A stretch of DNA of 64,000 bases from Micropruina sp. (GTDB lineage: Bacteria > Actinomycetota > Actinomycetes > Propionibacteriales > Propionibacteriaceae). Positions 144-62,089 of this stretch are shown here, piece by piece. The position numbers and the translations under genes are program-made. The notes beneath the pieces are model-generated. The model worked only from the letters and a program-made list of their open reading frames with translations, did not search any database and was not told where the DNA came from. The DNA is taken from the NCBI GenBank assembly GCA_044225075.1, contig JBGAJF010000020.1, positions 951 through 64,950 of the forward strand. The letters are read 5' to 3'. How positions within the stretch are numbered: position 1 is the stretch's first letter; each line of letters begins with the position of its first letter.

Positions 144-1138
<995 letters not shown>

Positions 1139-1793: not shown

Positions 1794-3043
1794 TACCCCA
1801 GGGTAAGCCCCATCGCGGTGAGGGTCAGCAGCGCAATATTGAGTGCCACGATCAGCGCGACCACCGTCCAGGCGATCGCCCGCAGCCGGCGTCCGTTTGC
1901 GAACCGGCCCATCACGGCCGGGTTGCTGGTCAGCAGCACCAACGGGATCGCCGCGAAGGGGATGCCGATCGACAGCAGCACCTGGCTGAGCACCAGCGAC
2001 CAGGTCGGGTCCAGGCCGAGGGCCAGCACGGCCAACGCCGGCACCAGGGTGATCGCCCGGCGGACCAGCAGTGGGATGCGCACCCGCAGCAGCCCCGACA
2101 TGATGGACGCGCCCGCGTAGCACCCCACCGAGGTCGAGGCCAGACCCGAGGCGAGCAGCCCGATGCCGAACACGACGCCGATCGCCGGCCCCAGCGCGAC
2201 GGTGATCGCGGCGTGGGCCCCTTCGATGCTGTCGGTGCCTTCGACGCCGTTCAGGCTGGCTGCGGCCAGCAGCAGCATGGCGATGTTGACGGTGCCGGCC
2301 ACCAGCAACGAGAGGCCGACGTCCCAGCGAGTGGCCCGGAGCAGCCGGCGTACGCCAGGTTCTCCGTGCAGTCCGTGCCGGTCGCGGGCCAGGGACGAGT
2401 GCAGGTAGATGGCGTGCGGCATCACGGTGGCGCCGAGCATGCCGGCCGCCAGCAGCACCGTCTGGGTGCCTTCGAAACGGGGCACCACGCCGGCGAGCGC
2501 GGCGCCCCAGTCGACGTCGCTGACCAGCAGGCCGGCACCGAAGCCCACCGTGATCACCGCGAGCAGGCCGATCACCACGAACTCGAACCGACGCTGCCCG
2601 CCCCGCGACTGCACCGCGAGCAAACCCATCGACACCACCCCGATGATCAGCCCGCCCAGCGGCAGGGGGACCCCGAACAGGATGTACAGGGCCAGCGCGC
2701 CGCCGATCACCTCGGCCAGGTCGGTGGCGGCCGCGACCACCTCGGCCTGCGCCCAGAACAGCAGCCGTTGCCCGCGTGGCAGCCGGTCCCCGAGCAACTC
2801 GGGCAGGCTGCGGCCGGTGACGAGGCCGAGCTTGGCGGACAGGTACTGGATCAACACCGCCATCGCGTTTGCCGCGATCAGCACCCAGAGCAGCAGGTAG
2901 CCGTACTGGGCCCCGGCGGTCAGATTGGCTGCCACGTTGCCCGGGTCGACGTAGGCGATCGCCGCCACGAACGCCGGTCCCAGCAGCCAGGGCAGCCGAC
3001 GCCGAGCCGGCTTCGGCGTCGACGTCCTGGTGGCAGCGGTCAC
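1793..3043 (-). CDS. mntH: Nramp family divalent metal (Mn2+) transporter
   Basis: AYVDPGN and GATVMPHAIYLHS Nramp signatures; many TM segments; GTG start 7 nt after a TAGCTT -10-like hexamer. Confidence 0.93.
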   Translation of the reverse strand: MTAATRTSTPKPARRRLPWLLGPAFVAAIAYVDPGNVAANLTAGAQYGYLLLWVLIAANAMAVLIQYLSAKLGLVTGRSLPELLGDRLPRGQRLLFWAQAEVVAAATDLAEVIGGALALYILFGVPLPLGGLIIGVVSMGLLAVQSRGGQRRFEFVVIGLLAVITVGFGAGLLVSDVDWGAALAGVVPRFEGTQTVLLAAGMLGATVMPHAIYLHSSLARDRHGLHGEPGVRRLLRATRWDVGLSLLVAGTVNIAMLLLAAASLNGVEGTDSIEGAHAAITVALGPAIGVVFGIGLLASGLASTSVGCYAGASIMSGLLRVRIPLLVRRAITLVPALAVLALGLDPTWSLVLSQVLLSIGIPFAAIPLVLLTSNPAVMGRFANGRRLRAIAWTVVALIVALNIALLTLTAMGLTLG

Positions 3044-3067
3044 GAAAGTTAAGCTACCTGAACTTTC
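3044..3067. promoter_or_regulatory. Putative MntR operator overlapping the mntH promoter and start
   Basis: Inverted repeat GAAAGTT-N10-AACTTTC abutting the mntH start codon; a DtxR-family gene is cotranscribed. Confidence 0.7.
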
Positions 3068-3210
3068 GTCCTGCGGTGTAGCTCTCGACCAGCTCATCCG
3101 GCGAGACCGGCGGTACGCAGGGACAGTTCTTTCGGTGCACTCGTGACGTGTTTGGTACGCAACAACCGCCCATACCACTCGACCCTGGAACGGGGTGCCA
3201 AGATCGGGGT

Positions 3211-5007
3211 GTGCCGACTCCGATCGAAGACCTCGCATTGCTGAGCAACTGCCGCACCGCGGCGCTGGTCTCCCGCGAGGGGGACGTCGAATGGCTGTGC
3301 CTGCCCCGGCTGGATTCGGCGTCGGTGTTCGCGGCTCTGCTGGGCGACGCCGACGACGGCGTCTGGCGGCTGCGGCCGTCCGCGACCGGCGCGAGCGCCG
3401 AGCGTCGCTACGACGGTGACACCTTCATTCTGGTGACCCGGTGGGAGACCCCGACCGGGGTGGCCGAGGTGCATGACTTCATGCCCGTCGGCAGTGACCC
3501 GCAGGCCGCGATCGACCGAACCGACCTGGTCCGGCGGGTCGTCGGCCTCTCCGGCACGGTCGCCTTCGATATCGACCTGCGGCTCCGGTTCGACTACGCC
3601 CGCGCCTTGCCGTGGGTGCGCCAAACCGGCAGCACGTCCGCCCCCGAGCTGATCGCGATGGCCGGCCCGGACGCCGTGGTGCTGCGTGGCGTCCGGCTGC
3701 ACCCCGACGGAGCTCGCCACCGCCGCAGCGTTGAGGTCACGGCTGGGCAGCGCATCGATCTGACCCTGACCTGGTTTCCGTCGTTCCGGCCGGTGCCCGA
3801 GACCCTCGACGTGGACCGGGCACTGGCTCAGAGCCGGGACTGGTGGCAGTCCTGGGCGGAGCGGATCGAGCATGGCGGCGTCCATGACGACAAGGTGGTG
3901 CGGTCGCTGCTGGTGCTGCGGGCGCTGACCAACCACGACACCGGAGGCATTGCGGCGGCGGCCACCACGTCCCTGCCCGAGGACATCGGCGGGGTACGGA
4001 ACTGGGACTACCGGTTCGTCTGGCTGCGCGACGCCGCGCTCACCCTGGAGGCCCTGCTGGCGCACGGCTTCCTTAAGCTGGCCGAGCATTGGCGCACCTG
4101 GCTGCTGCGAGCGGTGGCCGGCGACCCGGCAGACCTGCAGATCATGTACGGACTCGCCGGGGAGCGGAATCTGCCCGAGCAGGAGCTGCCGCAGCTGACG
4201 GGCTACGCGGGTTCGCGTCCAATCCGGATCGGCAACGGCGCGTCGCTGCAGTACCAGGCAGACGTGGTCGGCGAGGTGATCGTGACACTCTCCGCGGCGC
4301 GGGACGCCGGGCTGACCGAGTCGGCGTTCTCCTGGCCGCTGGAGAAGCATCTGGTGCGCTACGCGTCCGACCAGTTCGAGCGTCCGGACAACGGCATCTG
4401 GGAGATCCGCGGCGAGCCACAGCACTTCACCCATTCGCGGGTGATGATGTGGGCCACCTTCGACCGAGCCGTCCGGGCCGTGGAGCAGCACGGTCTCGAC
4501 GGCCCGGTCGAGCACTGGCGCGAGCTTCGTCAGCGCGCTCGGGAGGAGATCGACAACAGCGGCGTCGCAAACGGCCACTTCGTCCAGTACTACGGCACCG
4601 AGGAGGTGGACGCTGCGCTGCTGCTGTTGCCGCAGGTCGGCTATTGCGCGCCGGACGACCCGCGGATGCTGGCCACCGTGGCGCGGATTGAGGACACCCT
4701 GATCTCCGACGGTCTGGTGCGTCGCTACCGCACCGGCACCGGGGTGGACGGGCTGCCCGGCGGCGACCATCCGTTCCTGGCCTGTTCGTTCTGGCTGGTC
4801 GAGCAGTACGCCACGTCGGGGCGCGCCGACGATGCCGCGGCCCTGATGCAGCGGCTGTGTTCGTTCACCAACGACCTCGGCCTGCTGTCCGAGGAGTACG
4901 ACCCGGTCGGACGCCGTCAGGTCGGCAACTTCCCCCAGGCCTTCTCGCACCTGGCACTGGTGCGCGCCGCCGATGCGCTGGCCGGGATCGGACGCCAGCC
5001 GCGCTGA
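3211..5007 (+). CDS. Glycoside hydrolase family 15 (trehalase/glucoamylase-like)
   Basis: AAATTSLPE, RNWDYRFVWLRD, GIWEIRG, LLSEEYD and GNFPQAFSH motifs. Confidence 0.9.
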   Translation: MPTPIEDLALLSNCRTAALVSREGDVEWLCLPRLDSASVFAALLGDADDGVWRLRPSATGASAERRYDGDTFILVTRWETPTGVAEVHDFMPVGSDPQAAIDRTDLVRRVVGLSGTVAFDIDLRLRFDYARALPWVRQTGSTSAPELIAMAGPDAVVLRGVRLHPDGARHRRSVEVTAGQRIDLTLTWFPSFRPVPETLDVDRALAQSRDWWQSWAERIEHGGVHDDKVVRSLLVLRALTNHDTGGIAAAATTSLPEDIGGVRNWDYRFVWLRDAALTLEALLAHGFLKLAEHWRTWLLRAVAGDPADLQIMYGLAGERNLPEQELPQLTGYAGSRPIRIGNGASLQYQADVVGEVIVTLSAARDAGLTESAFSWPLEKHLVRYASDQFERPDNGIWEIRGEPQHFTHSRVMMWATFDRAVRAVEQHGLDGPVEHWRELRQRAREEIDNSGVANGHFVQYYGTEEVDAALLLLPQVGYCAPDDPRMLATVARIEDTLISDGLVRRYRTGTGVDGLPGGDHPFLACSFWLVEQYATSGRADDAAALMQRLCSFTNDLGLLSEEYDPVGRRQVGNFPQAFSHLALVRAADALAGIGRQPR

Positions 5008-52039: not shown

Positions 52040-52134
52040 TCCCGGCCGGATCCATCGGCTCAGCCGCCGCAGATTGAGCTTGTCGACTCCGATCTGAGGT
52101 GATCTCGATGCGCTCGCCCAACGGCCCTCAGCTG

Positions 52135-52149
52135 TTGGAACGATTCTCA
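52135..52149. promoter_or_regulatory. Zur/Fur-type box upstream of the methyltransferase
   Basis: Reverse strand TGAGAAT-C-GTTCCAA, 5 nt before a TATAGT -10 hexamer. Confidence 0.6.
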
Positions 52150-52192
52150 TCATCTATAGTCTCCACCGGAGTTCGACCCGGGAGGATGGCAG

Positions 52193-52915
52193 ATGAGCGA
52201 CCCCTACGCGGCGACCGCGGGCGCCTACGACCTGCTGAACGCACCCTGGCGAACCGCACAGATCGCGGCGCTGGAGCAGCTGCGTCCATGGCTGCATCCC
52301 GACGCCGGTCCAATACTGGACGTGGGCGCGGGAAGCGGGCTCAACACCGCCTGGGTACTACAGAACTGCCCCGACGCGCGGGTGCTCGCGCTCGAACCCA
52401 GCCCGGCGATGCGCTCACTGTGCCTGTCCCGGCTCGCCGGGTACGCCGATTGGCACGACCGGGTCACCCTGCGACCCGAGGACTTCTTCGCCGCACCGCT
52501 ACCGCCACGGATCGGCGGGGCGATCCTGCTGGGCATTCTGGGTCACTTCGACGCCGGCGAGCGAGCGGCCGTATTCGCCGAACTCGCCGATCGACTGCCG
52601 GACGCCGGGGCGGCTCTGATCGACCTCCAGCAACCCGAGCGGCCGGAGGACGTCCCTGCCTCCACCATGGCGAGCAGCCGGGTAGGCGAGCTGGAGTACC
52701 GGCTGATCGGCGAGGCGGCACCGCTGGGCGGCGACCGGTTGCGCTGGCGGATGACGTACCTCAGTTTGGAAGGGGAGCGAGTGCTCACCGAAGAGACCGC
52801 GGAGCACGTCTACCACCACCCCGATCCCGTGACGGTGGCCACCGAGGCAGCCTCTGTCGGGCTCCGCGCACAGCGTCTGGACGACACCACCTACTGGTTG
52901 CTTCGCCGCCCCTAG
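52193..52915 (+). CDS. Class I SAM-dependent methyltransferase
   Basis: ILDVGAGSG motif I and VLALEPS; GGAGG RBS. Confidence 0.85.
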   Translation: MSDPYAATAGAYDLLNAPWRTAQIAALEQLRPWLHPDAGPILDVGAGSGLNTAWVLQNCPDARVLALEPSPAMRSLCLSRLAGYADWHDRVTLRPEDFFAAPLPPRIGGAILLGILGHFDAGERAAVFAELADRLPDAGAALIDLQQPERPEDVPASTMASSRVGELEYRLIGEAAPLGGDRLRWRMTYLSLEGERVLTEETAEHVYHHPDPVTVATEAASVGLRAQRLDDTTYWLLRRP

Positions 52916-52955
52916 CGCCAAGGCGGGAAGGATTTGGAAACCCATGCCCGCCTAA

Positions 52956-52980
52956 ATAATAATGATAGTCATTAATTTCC
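52956..52980. promoter_or_regulatory. Zur-type box upstream of the CobW GTPase
   Basis: AT-rich island with the dyad TAATGA-TAG-TCATTA (52960-52974). Confidence 0.65.
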
Positions 52981-53092
52981 ATCTATCAGACGCCCCTCCG
53001 TCGCACAACAACGGCACCTGGGATCGCCGGTGCGACCCGGGCACCCTGCCACGTCCTGCCGGCCAGGGGCGTCCGATCGAAGGGGGTGGGCG

Positions 53093-54106
53093 ATGAACAG
53101 ACTCCCGGTGATCGCGCTCACCGGCTATCTGGGCGCGGGCAAGACCACCCTGCTCAACCACCTGTTGCGCGCCCCCGGCTCCCGGATCGGGGTCGTGGTC
53201 AACGACTTCGGCGCGATCAACGTCGACGCCACACTGGTCTCGGGGCAGGTGGACGAGCCGGCCTCGATCGCCGGCGGCTGCCTGTGCTGCCTGCCGGACG
53301 CCGGCGGCCTGGACGACGCTCTGGAGAAGCTGGCCGATCCGCGGCGCGGGTTGGACGCCGTCCTGGTCGAGGCCAGCGGGATCGCCGAGCCGGTGGCGTT
53401 GGCTCGACTGCTGCGGTTCAGTGGGGTGGACCGGGTCCGCCCGGGCGGCCTGGTGGACGTGATCAACGCCGCCGACCATCTTGAAACGGTCGATCGGGGC
53501 GGGCCGCCGCTGGCCCGCTACGCCGCCGCGACGCTGACCGTGATCAACAAGATCGACCAGGTGCCGGCGTCCGGGCGCGCCGAGCGGCTGGACCGGATCG
53601 CTACCCGGGTGCAGGCGGGCAATCCGCGCGCACACCTGGTGGCGACGACCGACGGGCGCATTGATCCGCTGCTGGTCTTCGACCCGTCCGGACAACCCGT
53701 GGCCGAGCAGCAGCCGGAGCTGGACCTGGCTCCCCCGGAGCCTGCCGATGCGCATCCGCATGCCCATGCCGATGCGGTGACGGTGACCGCCACGAACCCG
53801 GTCGATCCCGCCCGGCTATTGCGACTGCTGGAGGAACCACCGGCCGACGTCTACCGGCTCAAGGGCGGCGTCCGGGTAGCCACCGCCGGCGCCCCGCGGC
53901 GCCATCTGGTCAACCTGGTGGGCCGGCAGATCCACGTCACGGACGGAGCGCCCGCGCCCATGCCGGACGCTCTGGTGGCGATCGGCATGCACCTGGATCG
54001 CGTCACCGTCCGGGCTCGTTTGGAGGACGCGCTGGCGCCCGCCGATTCCCGTCCGACCGCCGCGGCGCTGCGCCGGTTGCTACGCTATCGCCGGCTCAGC
54101 GCCTAG
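53093..54106 (+). CDS. COG0523/CobW family GTPase (putative zinc metallochaperone)
   Basis: TGYLGAGKTT, VVNDFG, GGCLCC (GCxCC), EASG, NKID, HPHAH and YRLKG. Confidence 0.93.
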   Translation: MNRLPVIALTGYLGAGKTTLLNHLLRAPGSRIGVVVNDFGAINVDATLVSGQVDEPASIAGGCLCCLPDAGGLDDALEKLADPRRGLDAVLVEASGIAEPVALARLLRFSGVDRVRPGGLVDVINAADHLETVDRGGPPLARYAAATLTVINKIDQVPASGRAERLDRIATRVQAGNPRAHLVATTDGRIDPLLVFDPSGQPVAEQQPELDLAPPEPADAHPHAHADAVTVTATNPVDPARLLRLLEEPPADVYRLKGGVRVATAGAPRRHLVNLVGRQIHVTDGAPAPMPDALVAIGMHLDRVTVRARLEDALAPADSRPTAAALRRLLRYRRLSA

Positions 54107-54112
54107 CACTCA

Positions 54113-54885
54113 ATGACCGACCGGGCACTGCCGAGGCTGGGCACGATCGCCGGCTATCCGCGCTACCTGAGCGCCCGGATCGCCGCCTGGATCGGCAATG
54201 TGATGAGTCTGGTCGCACTGCCGGTGCTGATCTACCAACTGACCGGCAGCGCGGCCCTGACCGGGCTGCTGGCGGCGGCCGGCGCCCTGCCCTATCTGCT
54301 CCTCGGACTGCCTGCCGGGGCGCTGGCCGACCGCTGGGACAGCCGCCGCACGATGCCGGCTGGAGCACGGTGGCCGGGGTCGCGATGCTGTCGGTATCGG
54401 TCGCCCATGCGCTGGGCATGCTCACTCCCGCTCATGTGATGGTCACCGCCTTCGTGGTCGGCATGGCCTTCGTCTTCGCCGACGCCGCCTGCTTCGGTGC
54501 CCTGCCCCGGCTGGTCGGACGCGCCAACGTGGGCCGCGCGACGGCGTCCCAATCGGCGATCTACACGGTGATCAGCATCGCCGGGCCGGGCGCAGCGGGC
54601 TTGCTGATCACCCTGGTCGGCCCGGCCTGGGTGGTGGGGCTGGACGGGGTCGGCTACCTGGTGGAGGCGGTGCTGATCGCACGGCTGCCGCTGCCTCGCG
54701 TCCGCCCGAAGGCGTCCGGACGACCCAGGCTGCTGACCGACGTGGCGGAGGGCCTGCGGTTCGTCTGGCGGCACCACGTGATCCGGGTGCTGACTTTGGC
54801 CACCGTCGGGTTCGTAGCGCACGGCCCGGGCCAGTGCCGCCTCCGGGTCCCGCGTGGACCGCGTCCAGGCGGACAACACCCGTAG
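54113..54885 (+). pseudogene. MFS exporter (DHA3/EntS-like), frameshifted at ~54355 and truncated
   Basis: GLPAGALADRWDSRR in one frame; continues ALPRLVG...GPGAAG...DVAEGLRFVWRH in another and ends about half length. Confidence 0.75.
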
Positions 54886-54954
54886 CCCGGCCCGGATGCA
54901 GCGATACTGGGCGTCGCTCACCCAACGCTGATCGGCGCTCATCGGCGATGCCGC

Positions 54955-55839
54955 TCAGGCCACCGAGGCCGCGTAGATCGCCTCGCTCGTGGCCGCCAGC
55001 GTGGCGTCGAACTCGTCGTCGCTCTGCTGCGCGGTCAGACCGTCGAGCAGGGCGCGGCTGAAGCTGGCGATCAGGCCGGGGTTGCGGGCCAGCCGCTCGT
55101 TCGCCTCGTCGCGGCTGTAGCCGCCGGACAGGGCGACCACCCGGGCCACGTTCGGGTGCTCGATCAGTCGGTGTAGAAGCCGTCGACGCTCGGAATGGAC
55201 AGCTTGAGCGATCTTCTCCTCGCCCAGGACGTCCAGCCGGGACAGGATCGCGGCCTTCAGCAGCGCCTCGGCCTCCACCTTGTCGGGGGCGCCGATGTTC
55301 ACTTCGGGCTCCAGGATCGGCATCAGCCCGGCGTCCAGCACCTGGCGTCCGACCGCGAACTGCTGGTCGACGATGGCGTCGATACCGGTGGCGTTCGCGG
55401 CGTGGATCACCGAGCGCTCCTTGGTGCCGAAGACACCGAGGCCGCGGGCCTTGGCGAGCAGCCCGTCCAGGCCGGGAATGTCGCGCATCAACTGGACGTC
55501 GTCGGCCTGGTCGGCCAGGCCCTTGTCGATTTTGACGAACGGGATGATGCCCTTGCGCTGCCACAGGTAGGCGGCCACGCCCTCGCCGTCGATCTGCCGG
55601 TCGAGGGTCGCCTCGAACAGGATCGCGCCCAGGATCGTGTCGCTGGTGAAGGCGGCGCTGGTGATGATGCGGGCGCGGGCGGCCTGGATCAGGTCGTACA
55701 TCTCGGCGTCGGTTGAGTAGGCGGACTCATCGATGCCGTAGGACTTCAGAGCCTTCGGGGTGCTGCCGCCGCTCTGGTCCAGGGCGGCGATGAAGCCGTC
55801 GCCGGTTTCGAAGCGCGCGAGCATCTGCGGGTCGGACAT
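54955..55839 (-). CDS. fda: Fructose-bisphosphate aldolase class I, with a compensated double frameshift at ~55164-55210
   Basis: GFIAALDQSGGSTPKAL, ILGAILFE, PFVKIDKG, FGTKERSVI, PILEPEV, VVALSGGYSR and SFSRALL. Confidence 0.92.
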   Translation of the reverse strand: MSDPQMLARFETGDGFIAALDQSGGSTPKALKSYGIDESAYSTDAEMYDLIQAARARIITSAAFTSDTILGAILFEATLDRQIDGEGVAAYLWQRKGIIPFVKIDKGLADQADDVQLMRDIPGLDGLLAKARGLGVFGTKERSVIHAANATGIDAIVDQQFAVGRQVLDAGLMPILEPEVNIGAPDKVEAEALLKAAILSRLDVLGEEKIAQAVHSERRRLLHRLIEHPNVARVVALSGGYSRDEANERLARNPGLIASFSRALLDGLTAQQSDDEFDATLAATSEAIYAASVA

Positions 55840-55902
55840 GAACAGCCTCCTTGGTCGGCTCTCGCCGGCTCGGTCGTGGGGTCGTTACCAGGTTAACCTT
55901 AT

Positions 55903-55917
55903 CGCGAGTGATTCTCA
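55903..55917. promoter_or_regulatory. Zur/Fur-type box upstream of the class I aldolase
   Basis: Reverse strand TGAGAAT-C-ACTCGCG just upstream of a TAAGGT/TAACCT -10-like region. Confidence 0.5.
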
Positions 55918-55940
55918 TTCTTTTTCGGATGTTTTGTTGA

Positions 55941-55967
55941 CCACCCCTCCACCCCTCCACCCCTCCA
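55941..55967. repeat. 8-bp tandem repeat (CCACCCCT)x3
   Basis: Direct reading of 55941-55967. Confidence 0.85.
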
Positions 55968-55978
55968 GACCACTGAAT

Positions 55979-55993
55979 CGAGAATCATTCTCG
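55979..55993. promoter_or_regulatory. Perfect 7-1-7 Zur/Fur-type palindrome in the fda-TetR divergent region
   Basis: CGAGAAT-C-ATTCTCG. Confidence 0.65.
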
Positions 55994-56042
55994 TCAGATA
56001 GTGTGAACGCTGTTCTAATCTGTCCGCGGGACGAGATCAAGA

Positions 56043-56138
56043 CGTTGGTCGAGATCCACCATCCGTTGGTCGAGACCCACCACCCGTTGGCCGAGCTTGT
56101 CGAGACCTCACGAGGGGTTTCGACAAGCTCAACCAACG
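56043..56138. repeat. REP-like element copy 2, with a 21-bp tandem triplication of its left arm
   Basis: CGTTGG(T/C)CGAG... units at 56043, 56064 and 56085; arms GAGCTTGTCGAGACC / GGTTTCGACAAGCTCAACCAACG. Confidence 0.8.
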
Positions 56139-56167
56139 GGAGGTCGAGCCAGTAGGAAGGAGAGCCG

Positions 56168-56866
56168 GTGAGCGACACCGCCACCGCGCCGTTTCATGTC
56201 GGACTCACGCCGGACCGCGTGGTCGATGCCGCCGCGGACTTGACCCGCGAGTCACACCTGATGAGCTGGTCGATCCGCGACCTGGCGGCCCGGCTCGGGG
56301 TCGCGCCATCGGTCATTTACCACCATGTCGGCGGCAAGGATCTGCTCTGCCGTCGGGTCGTCGAGCGCGTCCTCGTCCGAATCGAACTACCGGACGCCGA
56401 ACTGCCGTGGCAGGACTGGTTCCGGACGCTGCTCCGCTCCGTCCAGCCGCTCGCCGCCGAGTATCCGGGCGTGGCGAAGTGGATGCTGATGCACGGGCCG
56501 ACGATTCCTGCCGTGCTGCCGGTGCTCGAGGCCGGGATGGCGATCCTGCGCCGCGCCGGCTTCGGTGACCACACCGTGCTCGCCTATGCGGTGCTGCTCA
56601 ACAGCGCCATGCTGACCATCTCGATGAGTGACGATCGCCTGCAGCACGAGGGGGACGGGCCCCGCGACCACGCCACCATGATGACCGAGTTCGCCCAGCT
56701 GCCGACCCAGTCCGACGACGTCCGAGCGATGGGACGTGACTTCCTGCGTCCGTTCGCCGAGGGCGGCGAAACCGCGGCCCGGATGCGCGTCGCGTACTAC
56801 CACTTCACCATCGACACCACCATCGCCGGGCTGACGTCCACCCTGACCGGAGGTACAGCACAGTGA
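56168..56866 (+). CDS. TetR/AcrR family transcriptional regulator
   Basis: WSIRDLAARLGVAPSVIYHHVGGKDLL HTH; TetR_C-like C-terminus. Confidence 0.9.
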   Translation: MSDTATAPFHVGLTPDRVVDAAADLTRESHLMSWSIRDLAARLGVAPSVIYHHVGGKDLLCRRVVERVLVRIELPDAELPWQDWFRTLLRSVQPLAAEYPGVAKWMLMHGPTIPAVLPVLEAGMAILRRAGFGDHTVLAYAVLLNSAMLTISMSDDRLQHEGDGPRDHATMMTEFAQLPTQSDDVRAMGRDFLRPFAEGGETAARMRVAYYHFTIDTTIAGLTSTLTGGTAQ

Positions 56867-58092
56867 CCGCCACAGATCCGACCACTACCACACGTCCGCA
56901 GATCGGGCTGCTGCTCAGCTCCGTGCTGCTGGTCTACTTCGGCCAGATGACGCTCAACCCGATCATCGCGCCGCTGTCCCGCGAGGTCGGCCTGGCGGAA
57001 TGGCAGATCGGCGTCACGATCAGCGCCGCCGCGGTCATGCTGGTGCTGACCAGCCAGTCCTGGGGACGCCGCTCCCAGGCCTGGGGCCGCAAACCGGTCC
57101 TGATCGCCGCGTTTGCGCTCGCCACCGCCACGATGACGGCGTTCGCCCTGGTCGCCTGGCTGGGCATGACCGGCATCCTTACCGGCACCGGCCTGTTCAT
57201 GCTGTTCGTGCTGCTGCGCGGCGTTGGCTTCGGATCAGCGATCGCCGCCGTCCCGCCGACCGCGCAGGCCTACATCGCCGATGTCACCAGTGACGAGCAG
57301 ACTCGGGTGAAGGGCATGGCCGGCATCGGGGCGGTGCAGGGGGTGGCGATGATCGGCGGCTCCGTTCTCGGCGGGGTGCTGGCGGCGTTCGGATTGATCG
57401 TCCCGCTGATCGCCGTCCCGGTGTTGCTGGCGGTCGGGCTGGTGCTGCTGGGCGTCCGGCTGCGTCGTGAGACGCACACCGAACTCGTCGAGCAACCGCC
57501 CCGGATCAGTCCGCTGGACGCCCGGGTGTGGCCGTTCCTGCTGGCCGGCTTCGGCATGTTCACCGCGCTGGGCTTCATTCAGGTCATCACCGGGTTCATC
57601 GTCCAGGACCGGCTCGGCCTCGACGCCCAGACCACCGGCCTGGTCACCGGCGGTGCGTTGCTGGCCGCCGGGGTGGGCATGGTGGTGGCGCAGGGCGTGA
57701 TCGTGCCGCGCAGCGGTTGGGCGCCGCAGAAGCTGCTGCGGGTCGGCACGGTCGTCGCGCTCGTCGGCTTCGCCACCCTCATTCCGGACGCCGGCGCGGC
57801 AGCGCTGTTCGTCGCGATCCTGCTGATCGGGCTGGGACTCGGCGTCGCCATGCCCGGGTACACCGCCGGCCCCTCGTTGCTGATGCGGCGCGAGGAGCAG
57901 GGCGGCCTGGCCGGGCTGATCGGCGCGACCAACGGACTTACGTTCGTGATCGCCCCCACGCTGGGCACCGCGCTCTACGGAGTCTGGCCGTTGCTGCCGG
58001 TGATCCTCGGCACGGTCGTGATGGGGATCGTGGCGGCGTTCGTCCTGGTGCATCCACGGTTCCGGAGAATCTCGGCACCCGTGGTCGGTTGA
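56863..58092 (+). CDS. MFS transporter
   Basis: WGRRSQAWGRKP motif A variant; about 12 TM segments; GTGA overlap with TetR. Confidence 0.9.
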   Translation: MTATDPTTTTRPQIGLLLSSVLLVYFGQMTLNPIIAPLSREVGLAEWQIGVTISAAAVMLVLTSQSWGRRSQAWGRKPVLIAAFALATATMTAFALVAWLGMTGILTGTGLFMLFVLLRGVGFGSAIAAVPPTAQAYIADVTSDEQTRVKGMAGIGAVQGVAMIGGSVLGGVLAAFGLIVPLIAVPVLLAVGLVLLGVRLRRETHTELVEQPPRISPLDARVWPFLLAGFGMFTALGFIQVITGFIVQDRLGLDAQTTGLVTGGALLAAGVGMVVAQGVIVPRSGWAPQKLLRVGTVVALVGFATLIPDAGAAALFVAILLIGLGLGVAMPGYTAGPSLLMRREEQGGLAGLIGATNGLTFVIAPTLGTALYGVWPLLPVILGTVVMGIVAAFVLVHPRFRRISAPVVG

Positions 58093-58559
58093 GCTTGGCG
58101 AAACCCGTTGTCAGCCGGATCTCCCAGGCGCCTCAAGCGTCTGTTGCCGACCGAACTCCAAAGGCATCTCGGTCGCCGAGTGCCAGGTGCTTGATCGAGG
58201 CGACAGCGGGCTCAAATGCACGTCCCACCAAGCCCTCATACCGACCGACTGGCCGTGTCCCAAGATCGCGTGCGGACGTCCCGGTGTCAAACTCTGCAGC
58301 ACGGCCGGTCGGTAAAGGGTCAGATCGTGCGGCCCAGGCTGACCGGATAGCGTTCGGCTGTGGACATCTGGTTCTGGCAGCCCTGCAAGACACCTTGGAA
58401 GGACTGGATCGATTGAGTGCTGAAATCGAGGCCGCCGGTGACGACGTCCAGGTCATCGAGGACGAGTAACTCATCGGTTGCCGGTGTGCGGCTCGCTTGG
58501 CAGGGGATTGGCTGCGGCCGTACCCTTTACGGTAAGTGCTTCCAGAGTGGGGGTGGACC

Positions 58560-58709
58560 GTGGCCACAAGGGTCGTGAGGGTTGCTCCTCATCAGCGCAT
58601 GGCTGCTCAGGCCTTGGTGGAGCAGTTGGAGAAAGAGGGCAAACCCGTTCCGGAGTGGACGCGCAAGATCGCCAACGCCAAGCCGAAGGTTGCCCCGACA
58701 GCGGCCTGA
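58560..58709 (+). CDS. Unlisted 49-aa small protein
   Basis: VATRVVRVAPHQRMAAQALVEQLEKEGKPVPEWTRKIANAKPKVAPTAA; amphipathic helix pattern, GGGGG RBS-like tract; below the ORF-track cutoff. Confidence 0.5.
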   Translation: MATRVVRVAPHQRMAAQALVEQLEKEGKPVPEWTRKIANAKPKVAPTAA

Positions 58710-58834
58710 ACGGCAGCGCACTTCTGTGTCAATACGCACCCCAGGCTCAACGAGCCTGTGGTGTTCGCTTTGTGGCGGACTCTCTCCTCGACCTGCAATG
58801 CCACCGTCCTACACCTGCGCCCAGCCCCGCCGTA

Positions 58835-58883
58835 GGTCGAGCTTGTCAAGACCCATCCTGACCAGGTTTCGACAAGCTCAACC
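58835..58883. repeat. REP-like element copy 3
   Basis: GGTCGAGCTTGTCAAGACC ... GGTTTCGACAAGCTCAACC. Confidence 0.8.
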
Positions 58884-58917
58884 CCCGGCGGGCAAGCTCA
58901 CTGAACAGGACGGCTAC

Positions 58918-59214
58918 TCAGTGCTCGTCGTAGTGATCGCCATGGACGGCGTGGCGATGGCCATCGTGCACGTAGTCGACGTGGTCGCCGTGCTGCACGG
59001 AGTCGTGACCGCAGTCGTCGCCGTGGGCGTGGTCAGCCGGGGCGTGCTCGGCGACTTCCTCATGCTCGTCATAGTGATCCTCGTGCGCGGCGTGGCGATG
59101 GCCGTCGTGCAGGTAATCGACGTGGTCGCCGTGCTGCACCTCCTGATGGCCGCAATCGGCGCCGTGGGCGTGGTCGGCCTGGGTGTGCTCAGCCGTGTCG
59201 TGCTGGATGGTCAT
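58918..59214 (-). CDS. His-rich putative metal-binding protein with two internal repeats
   Basis: Two copies of DHAHGxDCGHxxVQHGDHVDYxHDGHRHAxHxDHYDEH; GGAAGGGAG RBS. Confidence 0.85.
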   Translation of the reverse strand: MTIQHDTAEHTQADHAHGADCGHQEVQHGDHVDYLHDGHRHAAHEDHYDEHEEVAEHAPADHAHGDDCGHDSVQHGDHVDYVHDGHRHAVHGDHYDEH

Positions 59215-59234: not shown

Positions 59235-59555
59235 TCAGTCGTCCGCCTCTGGGTCGAGAACGGGTTCCTGGACGTGGGCGAGGGCGTCCGCGATGACGTG
59301 GGTGACGTGCCGGTCGGCAAGGCGATACGTGACCTCCTTGCCGGAACGGCTGGCGGCCACCAGGCCGCCCTGACGCAGGGTGCGCAGATGCTGAGAAACC
59401 AGCGGCTGCGAAAGTCCCGTTGCTGCGGTCAGCGCTCCCACGGTTCGCGGCTCCTCACCGATCAGCCTGAGCAACAACAACCGCGACTCGTTGCCGAGCA
59501 CTTTGAACAGTTGCGCCGCCGCAGCCAGACCGGCTTCCGCGTCCATAAACTCCAT
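59235..59555 (-). CDS. ArsR/SmtB family metalloregulator
   Basis: LFKVLGNESRLLLL, LSQPLVSQHLRTLR and VTYRLADRHVTHVIADALAH (SmtB-like alpha5 D/H ligands). Confidence 0.9.
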   Translation of the reverse strand: MEFMDAEAGLAAAAQLFKVLGNESRLLLLRLIGEEPRTVGALTAATGLSQPLVSQHLRTLRQGGLVAASRSGKEVTYRLADRHVTHVIADALAHVQEPVLDPEADD

Positions 59556-59854
59556 GCCACCACACTTATTAGAAGATTGCAATATGTCTATATTTGAAAG
59601 CTGTTCTCATCGTCACCTGCCGCCGAATGGTAGTGATGTCTGCGCCGGGCCGGCCGGATTCCCACCCTGCCGTGGCTCCAGCGGCGTTCGATTGCCGGAA
59701 CGTTCGCAGGTCAGCCGCCGGCAAACCCGCCGCTCCGGTGAGGTCGCCGCGCGGCACCTGCGGGGTGACAACTCTTGACGACGCCGGAGCGCGGCGGTTA
59801 GGTGAGGACACTCGGGCACCGCCGCCCCGGATACCCATCCGACCAGGAGTGATC

Positions 59855-62089
59855 ATGACCACCGACCAGCTTCCCCCCGTCAGCCTCACCCCCGAGCAGA
59901 TCACCCAGCACGAACGCCGCTGGACGCCGGTTCGGATCGCCATTTGGGTGGCGATCGCGCTGCTGGGCGGGACGGCGTGGTTGATGATCGCGCTAGTCCG
60001 TGGCGAGACGATCAACGCGATCTGGTTCGTGTTCGCAGCGGTCTGCACGTACTTCATCGGCTATCGGTTCTACGCGACCTACATCGAGAAGAACATCACC
60101 AAACCCGACGACACCCGGGCGACTCCGGCCGAATACCTGGACAACGGGCAGGACTACATGCCCACCGATCGCCGGGTGCTCTACGGCCATCACTTCGCCG
60201 CCATCGCCGGCGCCGGACCGCTGGTCGGACCCGTCCTGGCGGCCCAGATGGGGTACCTGCCCGGGACGATCTGGATCATCGTCGGCGTCGTCCTGGCCGG
60301 CGCCGTTCAGGACTACCTGGTGCTGTTCTTCTCGATGCGCCGCGGCGGACGCTCGCTGGGCCAGATGGCCCGCGATGAACTCGGCGTGATCGGTGGCACC
60401 GCTGCCCTGCTCGCGACGCTGACCATCATGATCATCATCGTCGCCATCCTGGCCCTGGTCGTGGTCAACGCCCTCGGCGAGAGCGTCTGGGGGGTGTTCT
60501 CGGTCGGCATGACGATCCCGATCGCACTGTTCATGGGGGTCTACCTGCGCTACCTGCGGCCCGGGAAGGTGACCGAAGTCTCGATCATCGGTTTCGTGTT
60601 GCTGATTACGGTGATCATCGCCGGCGGTTGGGTCTCCAAGACCGACTGGGGACAGCATTACCTGCACCTGGATCGTCCGATGCTCGCCTGGTTCGTGATC
60701 ATCTACGGGTTCATCGCGGCCGTCCTGCCGGTGTGGCTGCTGCTGGCCCCGCGCGACTACCTGTCCACCTTCATGAAGGTCGGCACCATCGTGATGCTGG
60801 CCGCCGCCATCATCATCGTGCGGCCCGAAATCACGGTTCCCGCAGTCAGCGAGTTCGCCGGACGAACCGACTCGCCAGTGGTACCGGGCGCACTGTTTCC
60901 GTTCCTGTTCGTCACCATCGCATGCGGCGCACTCTCCGGTTTCCACGCGCTGATCTCGTCCGGCACCACGCCGAAACTGATCGAGAAAGAACGGCAGACG
61001 AAGCTGATCGGCTACGGCGGCATGCTGATGGAGTCCTTCGTGGCGATCATGGCGCTGGTCGCCGCCATCTCCATCGACCGCGGCATCTACTTCGCGATGA
61101 ACGCCTCCGCGGCGGTCACCCAGGGCACCGTCGAGGGCGCCGTCCAGTTCGTCAACAGCCTCGGCCTCGCCGGCGTCCACGTCACACCCGAAGTGCTTGA
61201 GTCGACCGCGCAGGCGGTCGGCGAGCACTCGATCGTCTCCCGCACCGGAGGAGCCCCGACGCTCGCCGTCGGGCTGGCCACGATCATGCATCACCTCATT
61301 CCCGGCGACGGGATGATGAGCTTCTGGTACCACTTCGCGATCATGTTCGAGGCGCTGTTCATTCTCACCGCCGTGGACGCCGGCACCCGGGTGGCGCGGT
61401 TCATGCTGCAGGATTCGCTGGGCAACTTCCTGCCGAGGTTCAAGGACACCTCGTGGCGGCTGGGAGCCTGGCTGGCGACGGCCATCATGGTCGGCGGCTG
61501 GGGCGCCATCCTGATCATGGGGGTGACCGATCCACTCGGCGGCATCAACACCCTGTTCCCGCTGTTCGGCATCGCCAACCAGTTGCTCGCCGCGATCGCG
61601 CTCGCGGTCTGCCTGGCGATCGCCGCCCGCACCGGACGCAAGGCTTTGTGGGTGATCGTGCTGCCCCTGGCCTTCACCTCGGTGATCACCATCTACGCCT
61701 CGATGGAGAAGATCTTCAGCAATGTGCCGGCCATCGGCTACTGGGCGCAGCACCGGGCCTACGCCGACGCGCTGGCAGCCGGCAAGACCAGCCTGGGCAG
61801 CGCCAAGACGGTGGCGGCGATGGAGGCGGTAGTGAGGAACACCTTCATCCAGGGCACCCTGTCGATCATCTTCGTCAGCCTGGCCATCATCGTGATCGTG
61901 ACCGCGCTGATCGCCACTGCCCGGACGCTGCGCCACGGCAGCGGGGACAGCACCGAGGACCCTGCCGTGCCGTCCACGATCTACGCACCGGCCGGCATGC
62001 TCGCCTCGGAGGACGAGAAGGCCTTGGAGGCGGAGTGGGCCGCGTACCACGCCGAGCACCCGCCGCTGGTCAGGCGCGGACACCACTGA
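59855..62089 (+). CDS. cstA: Carbon starvation CstA family transporter (peptide/pyruvate)
   Basis: GHHFAAIAGAGPLVGP, WLLLAPRDYLSTFMK, IACGALSGFHALISSGTT and LWYHFAIMFEALFILT-type motif. Confidence 0.95.
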   Translation: MTTDQLPPVSLTPEQITQHERRWTPVRIAIWVAIALLGGTAWLMIALVRGETINAIWFVFAAVCTYFIGYRFYATYIEKNITKPDDTRATPAEYLDNGQDYMPTDRRVLYGHHFAAIAGAGPLVGPVLAAQMGYLPGTIWIIVGVVLAGAVQDYLVLFFSMRRGGRSLGQMARDELGVIGGTAALLATLTIMIIIVAILALVVVNALGESVWGVFSVGMTIPIALFMGVYLRYLRPGKVTEVSIIGFVLLITVIIAGGWVSKTDWGQHYLHLDRPMLAWFVIIYGFIAAVLPVWLLLAPRDYLSTFMKVGTIVMLAAAIIIVRPEITVPAVSEFAGRTDSPVVPGALFPFLFVTIACGALSGFHALISSGTTPKLIEKERQTKLIGYGGMLMESFVAIMALVAAISIDRGIYFAMNASAAVTQGTVEGAVQFVNSLGLAGVHVTPEVLESTAQAVGEHSIVSRTGGAPTLAVGLATIMHHLIPGDGMMSFWYHFAIMFEALFILTAVDAGTRVARFMLQDSLGNFLPRFKDTSWRLGAWLATAIMVGGWGAILIMGVTDPLGGINTLFPLFGIANQLLAAIALAVCLAIAARTGRKALWVIVLPLAFTSVITIYASMEKIFSNVPAIGYWAQHRAYADALAAGKTSLGSAKTVAAMEAVVRNTFIQGTLSIIFVSLAIIVIVTALIATARTLRHGSGDSTEDPAVPSTIYAPAGMLASEDEKALEAEWAAYHAEHPPLVRRGHH

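Follow-up and report, generated by a model that had tools for sequence, protein, structure and literature searches.

The replacement of zinc proteins under the control of Zur is well established (PMC6103462, PMC2770081), and Zur-regulated zinc-independent paralogues have been described together with COG0523 proteins, namely, FolE2, PyrC2, DksA2, HemB2, and Cam (PMC2770081). In actinobacteria, including the zinc-responsive island of Mycobacterium avium subsp. paratuberculosis (MAP), Zur regulons comprise clustered promoters overlapped by 7-1-7 boxes of the TGAAAAT-N-ATTTTCA type, with some promoters carrying more than one box, and a znuABC-like importer, cobW/COG0523, and transporters are among their members (PMC4298942; PMC6103462). 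An aldolase swap is known from Staphylococcus aureus, in which the class I fructose-bisphosphate aldolase (FBA) FdaB replaces the metal-dependent FbaA under metal starvation (PMC9973326). Here, we analyzed a 64,000-nucleotide (nt) stretch of DNA from Micropruina sp. (the window; G+C of 68.6%), in which Zur-type boxes precede a methyltransferase gene, a COG0523 GTPase gene, a class I FBA gene, a TetR-major facilitator superfamily (MFS) pair, and an ArsR-family gene. We hold it to be rather probable that the segment from 52.1 to 59.6 kb is a metal-starvation island whose promoters are under one global Fur-family repressor, most likely Zur, and that the aldolase gene is a relic here.

The locus shares with the MAP island and other actinobacterial Zur regulons the clustering of promoters with 7-1-7 boxes, a predicted overlap of the boxes with the promoters, and the types of members listed above. 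It differs from the MAP island in that (i) its consensus, TGAGAAY-N-RTTCTCA, has G/C at the fourth position of each half-site; (ii) ribosomal-protein paralogues are absent from the DNA seen here; and (iii) a class I aldolase, a methyltransferase, a TetR-MFS pair, and a pair of ArsR and a His-rich protein appear as predicted members. As in the paralogue families surveyed previously, COG0523 is co-localized with a candidate metal-independent substitute behind predicted Zur sites, although aldolase is absent from the nine families of that survey, which covered Bacilli, proteobacteria, and cyanobacteria, not Actinobacteria (PMC2770081). Likewise, the aldolase is of the same short, roughly 296-amino-acid (aa) class I type as FdaB, with a proposed takeover from a metal-dependent class II enzyme when metal runs short. 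In S. aureus, however, manganese is limiting, ArlRS and an unidentified regulator are responsible, and no Zur box has been described (PMC9973326), whereas here the promoter bears a candidate operator of the Fur/Zur type, a class II partner is postulated, and this strain carries a broken allele.

The boxes themselves go back to an earlier note on this DNA, which had listed four of them (boxes 1 to 4) as part of a putative zinc-starvation regulon. We found all four at their positions (Table 1): three share GAGAATC, and box 4 is a perfect 7-1-7 palindrome. The flanking genes, too, are those that had been named, i.e., methyltransferase, COG0523, class I FBA, TetR, and MFS, as judged by Pfam and NCBIfam. 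The count fell short, however, since a fifth box (box 5) and a palindrome next to box 4 (box 4b) had been missed. Scanning the window for the 15-mer TGAGAAYNRTTCTCA with at most two mismatches returned three sites, all intergenic, against 0.20 expected and a maximum of two in 200 Markov simulations, such that the motif is enriched beyond chance. The note had also proposed a scan with a Zur matrix, for which we used one derived from 11 published MAP Zur boxes (PMC4298942) and hence independent of the window. Box 4 ranked first in the 64 kb (19.3 bits) and the register 52957-52971 of box 2 ranked second (15.9 bits), the null maximum for the window having a mean of 11.7 bits and a 95th percentile of 15.6; the remaining boxes scored 12.1 (box 1), 11.3 (box 5), and 8.4 bits (box 3). 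At 12 bits or more there were five sites versus 0.48 expected, one of which (58099-58113, 12.4 bits) is to be discounted; we rejected it as an operator because it coincides with one arm of a REP-like hairpin. A short 13-mer pattern with three mismatches occurred at chance level in the window. Box 3 is weak by itself and is validated by its conservation in relatives.

The boxes sit 5 to 7 nt upstream of conserved TAnnnT -10-type hexamers, a spacing that agrees with Zur boxes overlapping the -35 element (PMC6103462). More specifically, box 1 lies 44 to 58 nt 5' of the methyltransferase ATG and 5 nt 5' of a -10-like TATAGT (52155-52160), box 3 lies 7 nt 5' of the -10 hexamer TAACCT (55890-55895, - strand), and box 5 lies 40 nt 5' of the ArsR ATG and 246 nt 5' of cstA. 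Box 2 overlaps a sigma-70-like -10 element (TTGGAA-18-AATAAT) and fits better in the registers 52957-52971 and 52963-52977 than in the one noted earlier. The classical Fur box reportedly consists of two overlapping 7-1-7 sites offset by 6 bp, a description attributed to Baichoo and Helmann in 2002, and both box 2 (TAATAATGATAGTCATTAATT) and the FBA sites of the relatives (GAGAATGAGAATCACTCGC) can similarly be read as overlapping heptamer dyads; 15 of 19 positions agree between box 2 and GATAATGATAATCATTATC. Unlike a classical Fur box, however, the site belongs to a set of genes whose content points to zinc; iron control in actinobacteria is normally exerted by DtxR/IdeR. An IdeR-like palindrome, AGGTTAACCT (55890-55899), was rejected, as it is not conserved (relatives have AGGTTAGTCT) and is simply the -10 region. 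Between box 4 and the TAATCT hexamer of the TetR promoter, box 4b is probably the operator of TetR itself. Three tandem copies of CACCCCTC (55941-55967) lie between boxes 3 and 4, and they are not present in the FBA upstream regions of the relatives.

Conservation across relatives is the strongest evidence for the boxes as putative operators. The closest relatives are Micropruina metagenome-assembled genomes (MAGs) from activated sludge, of which six were compared (L001 to L005 and L033; FBA protein identity of 84 to 91%), together with a Propioniciclava MAG (L006; 77%). Boxes are kept before the aldolase, methyltransferase-COG0523, TetR-MFS, and ArsR genes across the six Micropruina genomes, and the flanking DNA differs. 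Upstream of FBA, ATGAGAA is invariant in all eight genomes (the window and seven relatives, including Propioniciclava), even though the regions beyond about -95 cannot be aligned because the neighboring genes differ; in the relatives, a TAnnCT/TAnTGT -10 hexamer follows the box by 7 nt, and the Propioniciclava box is a perfect palindrome, TGAGAACGGTTCTCA. Box 1 is kept before the methyltransferase gene in L002, L003, and L033 as TTGTAACGATTCTCA or TTAGAATGATTCTCA. In these three genomes the methyltransferase gene directly abuts COG0523 (with gaps of 12 to 28 nt in L003 and L033), and COG0523 would therefore be driven from box 1 there. The 178-nt spacer that carries box 2 is absent from all three and occurs only in the lineage of the window. 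Box 2 at the COG0523 promoter, as in the earlier note, is therefore lineage-specific and does not carry over to the relatives, which would co-transcribe COG0523 with the methyltransferase gene from the box 1 promoter. L004 lacks the methyltransferase gene and has CGATAGTCATTCTCA, homologous to TGATAGTCATTAATT of the window, directly before COG0523. Before TetR, box 4 is kept as TGAGAACCATTATCT and box 4b as TGAACAnTGTTCTAATCTGTCC in L002, L004, and L033, the palindrome form of the latter being TGAACAnTGTTCT, followed by an invariant TAATCT. At the place of box 5 before ArsR, L033 carries TGAGAACCGCTCTCA.

The relatives also have boxed genes that the window lacks. In L001 to L005, about 7 kb separates FBA from the MFS_3 gene and includes a ZnuA (PF01297)/ATPase/ABC-3 operon, about 70 nt before which TGAGAGTAGTTATCA is found. 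The best NCBIfam matches of this importer are AztC, AztA, and AztB, all below their cut-offs, with manganese models close behind. In L001, L002, L005, and L033, a Peripla_BP_2 lipoprotein gene lies upstream of FBA and is preceded by TGAGAAYNGTTGTCA; L002 additionally encodes an EamA transporter whose tail is rich in His, along with two ABC exporters.

The aldolase open reading frame (ORF) of the window scored 420.9 bits against NF003784 (cut-off of 392), the family (NF003784/PRK05377) to which we take S. aureus FdaB to belong, and matched PDB 2IQT with E = 1.4e-89. The alignment to 2IQT, however, collapses at residues 211 to 226. A DNA alignment of the window with 12 sequences (nine relatives and three contigs of the same strain with the window allele) revealed that the window FBA is without 2 nt after GAGAAGAT and without a further 1 nt located 47 nt further on; the bounds of the lesion are a 1-nt deletion at 55167/55168 and a 2-nt deletion at 55207/55208. 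The frame is restored, but 15 codons are scrambled, such that ALKLSIPSVDGFYT(D/E)L is read as AQAVHSERRRLLHRL. All 21 other homologues (from Actinobacteria, Proteobacteria, and Firmicutes) have xLKLSIPxVDGFYxxL at this place, and the window product lacks the presumed Schiff-base strand (beta-6, LK[LI][ST]IP), including the K213 and P217 that are invariant in those 21. Between the EPE motif and LSGG, no lysine other than K213 is invariant, and by its position K213 would be the Schiff-base lysine, in line with HAMAP MF_00729; a profile alignment to eukaryotic FBA ends just before K213. Because the invariant lysine falls within the scrambled codons, the product is most likely catalytically dead, and the strain would have no working backup. 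The earlier note had cast the class I FBA as a working zinc-sparing backup, which fails for this strain, as the two deletions remove that lysine. Annotation alone is misleading here, since the ORF is full-length and above a curated cut-off, yet the putative catalytic strand is lost. For the genus, in which intact alleles and a conserved box are found, a zinc-sparing aldolase is the best hypothesis.

The lesion was recovered, gap-free and at 23-48x depth, in Logan contigs of three runs from three studies (X1, X3, and X4), and five assemblies encode the identical protein. Its presence in independent runs means that it is no assembly error. A 2019 sludge run (X16) carries an intact allele with both insertions and about 99% identity, whereas run X25 has only the GC insertion, which leads to a premature stop after GFYTD. 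Three alleles, namely, intact (X16), stop (X25), and frame-restored (window, X1, X3, and X4), therefore co-exist in sludge populations, which suggests that an intact gene first lost 1 nt and later, in compensation, another 2 nt.

Decay extends beyond the aldolase. The stretch 54100-54794 matches the 5' part of MFS_3, whereas 54797-54960 matches DNA that lies just 3' of FBA in relatives. Relative to L001 to L005, about 6.7 kb has therefore been deleted at the junction 54794/54797, and with it the 3' part of the EntS-like MFS gene, the ZnuABC/AztABC-like operon, and the Peripla_BP_2 gene. The remaining MFS_3 piece is frameshifted as well. The island is evidently decaying in the window strain, a relic rather than a working system there. 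L033 shows a different, overlapping deletion.

A metal importer and a COG0523 protein with CxCC and a His-rich linker behind the same Fur-type box constitute the signature of Zur regulons (PMC2770081; PMC6103462), and COG0523 proteins with these two features form the subfamily that usually stands behind Zur sites (PMC2770081). If Zur is the repressor, then, loaded with zinc, it would occupy the 7-1-7 boxes across the -35/spacer region and thereby block the methyltransferase-COG0523(-EntS-like MFS) operon, the class I aldolase gene, the TetR-MFS operon, and the operon of ArsR and the His-rich protein, as well as, in the sister genomes, the ZnuABC/AztABC-like importer and the siderophore-type binding protein. 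Zinc scarcity would derepress these genes. In the genus, a metal-free Schiff-base class I aldolase would be a conserved regulon member, plausibly standing in for a metal-dependent class II enzyme. The sequences and how they are conserved, which genes are present, and what has been deleted were observed directly; that Zur binds the boxes, that zinc is the signal, and that there is a class II partner is what we infer.

The Zur-type zinc-starvation regulon proposed in the earlier note is well supported by the 7-1-7 geometry, the promoter positions, the matrix match, the conservation, and the importer box in the relatives, and we regard it as likely rather than proven. Several observations weigh against it. 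Neither the window nor the loci of the relatives examined showed a zur gene or any recognized Fur-family gene, and roughly 260 kb contained no ribosomal-protein paralogues, which are the second hallmark of such regulons in actinobacteria. The consensus carries a G at a position at which the boxes of mycobacteria and Streptomyces have an A, and a paralogous Fur-family protein may therefore be the binder. The ZnuA-like protein falls under every NCBIfam cut-off, matches both zinc and manganese models, and, read by eye, has no obvious His-rich stretch. In Mycolicibacterium, Pseudonocardia, Acidimicrobiia, and other taxa, the Zur matrix found nothing near class I FBA genes, which makes the link between box and FBA lineage-specific. 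Contigs from sludge metatranscriptomes were too fragmentary to be informative, and the boxes are operators predicted from sequence. Finally, no class II FBA is encoded in the window, and 118 class II loci retrieved from metagenomes by a pattern scan were not attributable to this genome; tetranucleotide similarity failed to discriminate. The M. tuberculosis FBA as a query returned only mycobacteria.

We regard it as unlikely that the boxes belong to another metal sensor, either the ArsR/SmtB protein of the island or a non-Zur Fur paralogue, which would answer an excess of Ni, Co, Zn, or Cd, with the MFS pumps and the His-rich protein detoxifying the metal and the class I aldolase replacing a metal-poisoned class II enzyme. 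The promoter of the ArsR/SmtB gene does itself carry a box, the presence of two MFS exporters alongside a His-rich protein would suit a resistance set, and the consensus departs from the canonical Zur box at one position per half-site. In the relatives, however, this box also stands before COG0523 and an operon for metal import, both of which are starvation functions, and the 7-1-7 layout as well as the agreement with the matrix resemble Fur/Zur, whereas ArsR/SmtB operators are 12-2-12 repeats. In E. coli, the class I enzyme FbaB reportedly relieves the effect of nickel on FbaA. The class II FbaA is the main nickel target there, according to the title of a reference in PMC12632275, which would fit a poisoned class II enzyme; yet Propioniciclava has the FBA box and no homologue of COG0523, TetR, or MFS within 10 kb (ArsR was not among the queries). 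It is most improbable that the boxes are merely local, with boxes 4 and 4b forming the operator of TetR and the others being AT-rich promoter look-alikes. Box 4 is indeed a perfect palindrome immediately upstream of TetR, the usual place for autoregulation, and the loose 13-mer gave chance-level counts, but enrichment was seen with the stricter motif as well as with the independent matrix, and box 4b offers TetR another conserved palindrome. Moreover, L001, L003, and L005 have the box before FBA and znuA and no TetR homologue in the DNA examined, and in L002 and L004 the TetR gene is about 7.7 kb away from FBA.

A further alternative makes the class I aldolase the present or former housekeeping enzyme of Micropruina, which the box only modulates, with neither a class II partner nor an isozyme switch. 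Its G+C content at third codon positions (GC3 = 0.93) is as high as that of glnA, and a high GC3 would suit high expression. FBA transcript fragments are present in sludge metatranscriptomes, several MAGs show only this class I copy, and the class I fba2 of P. freudenreichii is well expressed (PMC3258244). We nevertheless consider this explanation quite unlikely, as the gene is inactivated in a strain found in at least four separate sludge or bioreactor studies, at 23-48x in those three runs for which depth was measured. We take the organism to be glycolytic because a 744-aa phosphofructokinase (PFK) is encoded in the window; since the only class I gene seen is dead, another aldolase must exist, which argues against a sole constitutive class I enzyme. 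Some Micropruina MAGs (L007 to L009) have a second class I FBA (68% identity) that is box-free and adjoins mntH and a DtxR/MntR-type gene, but its syntenic place in the window (~1138-1190) holds a gnd-like gene instead. Class II FBA fragments occur at similar depth in the same four runs, which is suggestive only. The second copy of L008 contains an in-frame TAG.

For the metal-starvation island under a Zur-type repressor, we tentatively propose, with a confidence that stops somewhat short of even, that Zur of Micropruina and Propioniciclava acts directly on the aldolase step of glycolysis, exchanging a class II enzyme that depends on zinc for a class I enzyme of the FdaB type that needs no metal, and that this switch is dispensable enough in wastewater plants for intact, truncated, and frame-restored dead alleles to occur side by side in natural populations. 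Neither the literature that we searched nor the two surveys consulted described a class I aldolase gene with a Zur box, and aldolase is mentioned neither in the Micropruina genome paper nor in its supplement. If our proposal is correct, it would provide the first case of a class I FBA promoter that carries the operator of a metalloregulator. The swap in S. aureus is the one studied aldolase swap, and it is still without a metal-responsive regulator; a conserved Fur/Zur-type candidate operator before an FdaB-type gene, present in a wastewater genus that is both abundant and culturable, offers a direct and cheap test of that link.

Table 1. Boxes and genes of the island in the window, with the second aldolase copy of relatives
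Feature	Coordinates	Strand	Remarks
Box 1, Zur-type candidate operator	52135..52149	.	TTGGAACGATTCTCA, reverse complement TGAGAATCGTTCCAA; 2 mismatches to 15-mer
Methyltransferase, S-adenosylmethionine-dependent, 240 aa	52193..52915	+	Pfam Methyltransf_25/12/11; first gene of box 1 operon
Box 2, as noted earlier	52960..52974	.	TAATGATAGTCATTA
Box 2 region	52957..52977	.	two overlapping 7-1-7 sites 6 nt apart, TAATAATGATAGTCA and TGATAGTCATTAATT
COG0523 GTPase, 337 aa	53093..54106	+	P-loop, GCLCC, His-rich linker, CobW_C
EntS-like MFS_3 pseudogene	54113..54885	+	frameshifted, 3'-truncated; same split ORFs in 4 Logan contigs
Class I FBA gene (FdaB/PRK05377 type)	54955..55839	-	compensated double frameshift
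Scrambled FBA segment	55168..55207	-	codons read out of frame
Box 3, Zur-type candidate operator of FBA promoter	55903..55917	.	CGCGAGTGATTCTCA; - strand TGAGAATCACTCGCG
Box 4, upstream of TetR-MFS	55979..55993	.	CGAGAATCATTCTCG; perfect 7-1-7 palindrome
Box 4b, second, different palindrome	56004..56018	.	TGAACGCTGTTCTAA, then invariant TAATCT
TetR-family regulator	56168..56866	+	
MFS transporter (DHA12/Tet-like)	56863..58092	+	overlaps TetR stop codon
His-rich 98-aa protein	58918..59214	-	downstream of ArsR; two repeats
ArsR/SmtB-family metalloregulator	59235..59555	-	NF033788, 80.8 bits vs cut-off 55; winged-helix HTH_5
Box 5 (new)	59595..59609	.	TGAAAGCTGTTCTCA; 2 mismatches to 15-mer
CstA-family transporter	59855..62089	+	regulon membership uncertain
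Second class I FBA paralogue	L007:3389-4270, L008:10001-10882, L009:10001-10882		

Genes for a methionine aminopeptidase and a DUF2510 protein are followed by box 1 and the methyltransferase gene. The COG0523 protein has the domains PF02492 (cobW) and PF07683 (CobW_C) and the motifs GAGKTT, GCLCC (CxCC), and a His-rich AHPHAH; it scored below the cut-offs of the NCBIfam models ZigA, CobW, and YjiA and is therefore no equivalog of any named member. The "export" role given to the TetR-MFS pair is a conjecture. The 98-aa His-rich protein, for which no Pfam or NCBIfam family was matched, is a candidate metal-binding protein. It is extremely enriched in His, Asp, and Glu and is built from the repeat unit DHAHGxDCGH..HGDHVDYxHDGHRH..DHYDEH, encoded by two 131-nt repeats with one Cys each. 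Its ORF always comes after ArsR, and the pair is kept in L033 (His-rich ORF at ~2960-3260). Following the MFS gene, about 800 nt are gene-free (58093-58917 in the window), where L033 has a second methyltransferase paralogue (L033:5402-6115). Rfam returned no RNA family at E <= 0.1 within 51.5-60.5 kb.

The gnd-like gene (6-phosphogluconate dehydrogenase family; window 144-1138, - strand) is represented by two overlapping ORFs, which suggests a frameshift. DNA of the window recurs in many sludge and bioreactor metagenomes. A REP-like hairpin element with the arms CCGTTGGNCGAGCTTGTCGAGACC and GGTTTCGACAAGCTCAACC occupies intergenic positions at 56079-56144, in the 5' leader of TetR, and at 58830-58892, with half copies at 52067-52086 and 58084-58114 and tandem 21-mers at 56043-56084. 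Similar sequence is visible in the upstream regions of several relatives. The element has very high depth in RNA contigs, and the high RNA-contig depth at 56084-56140 comes from this repeat.

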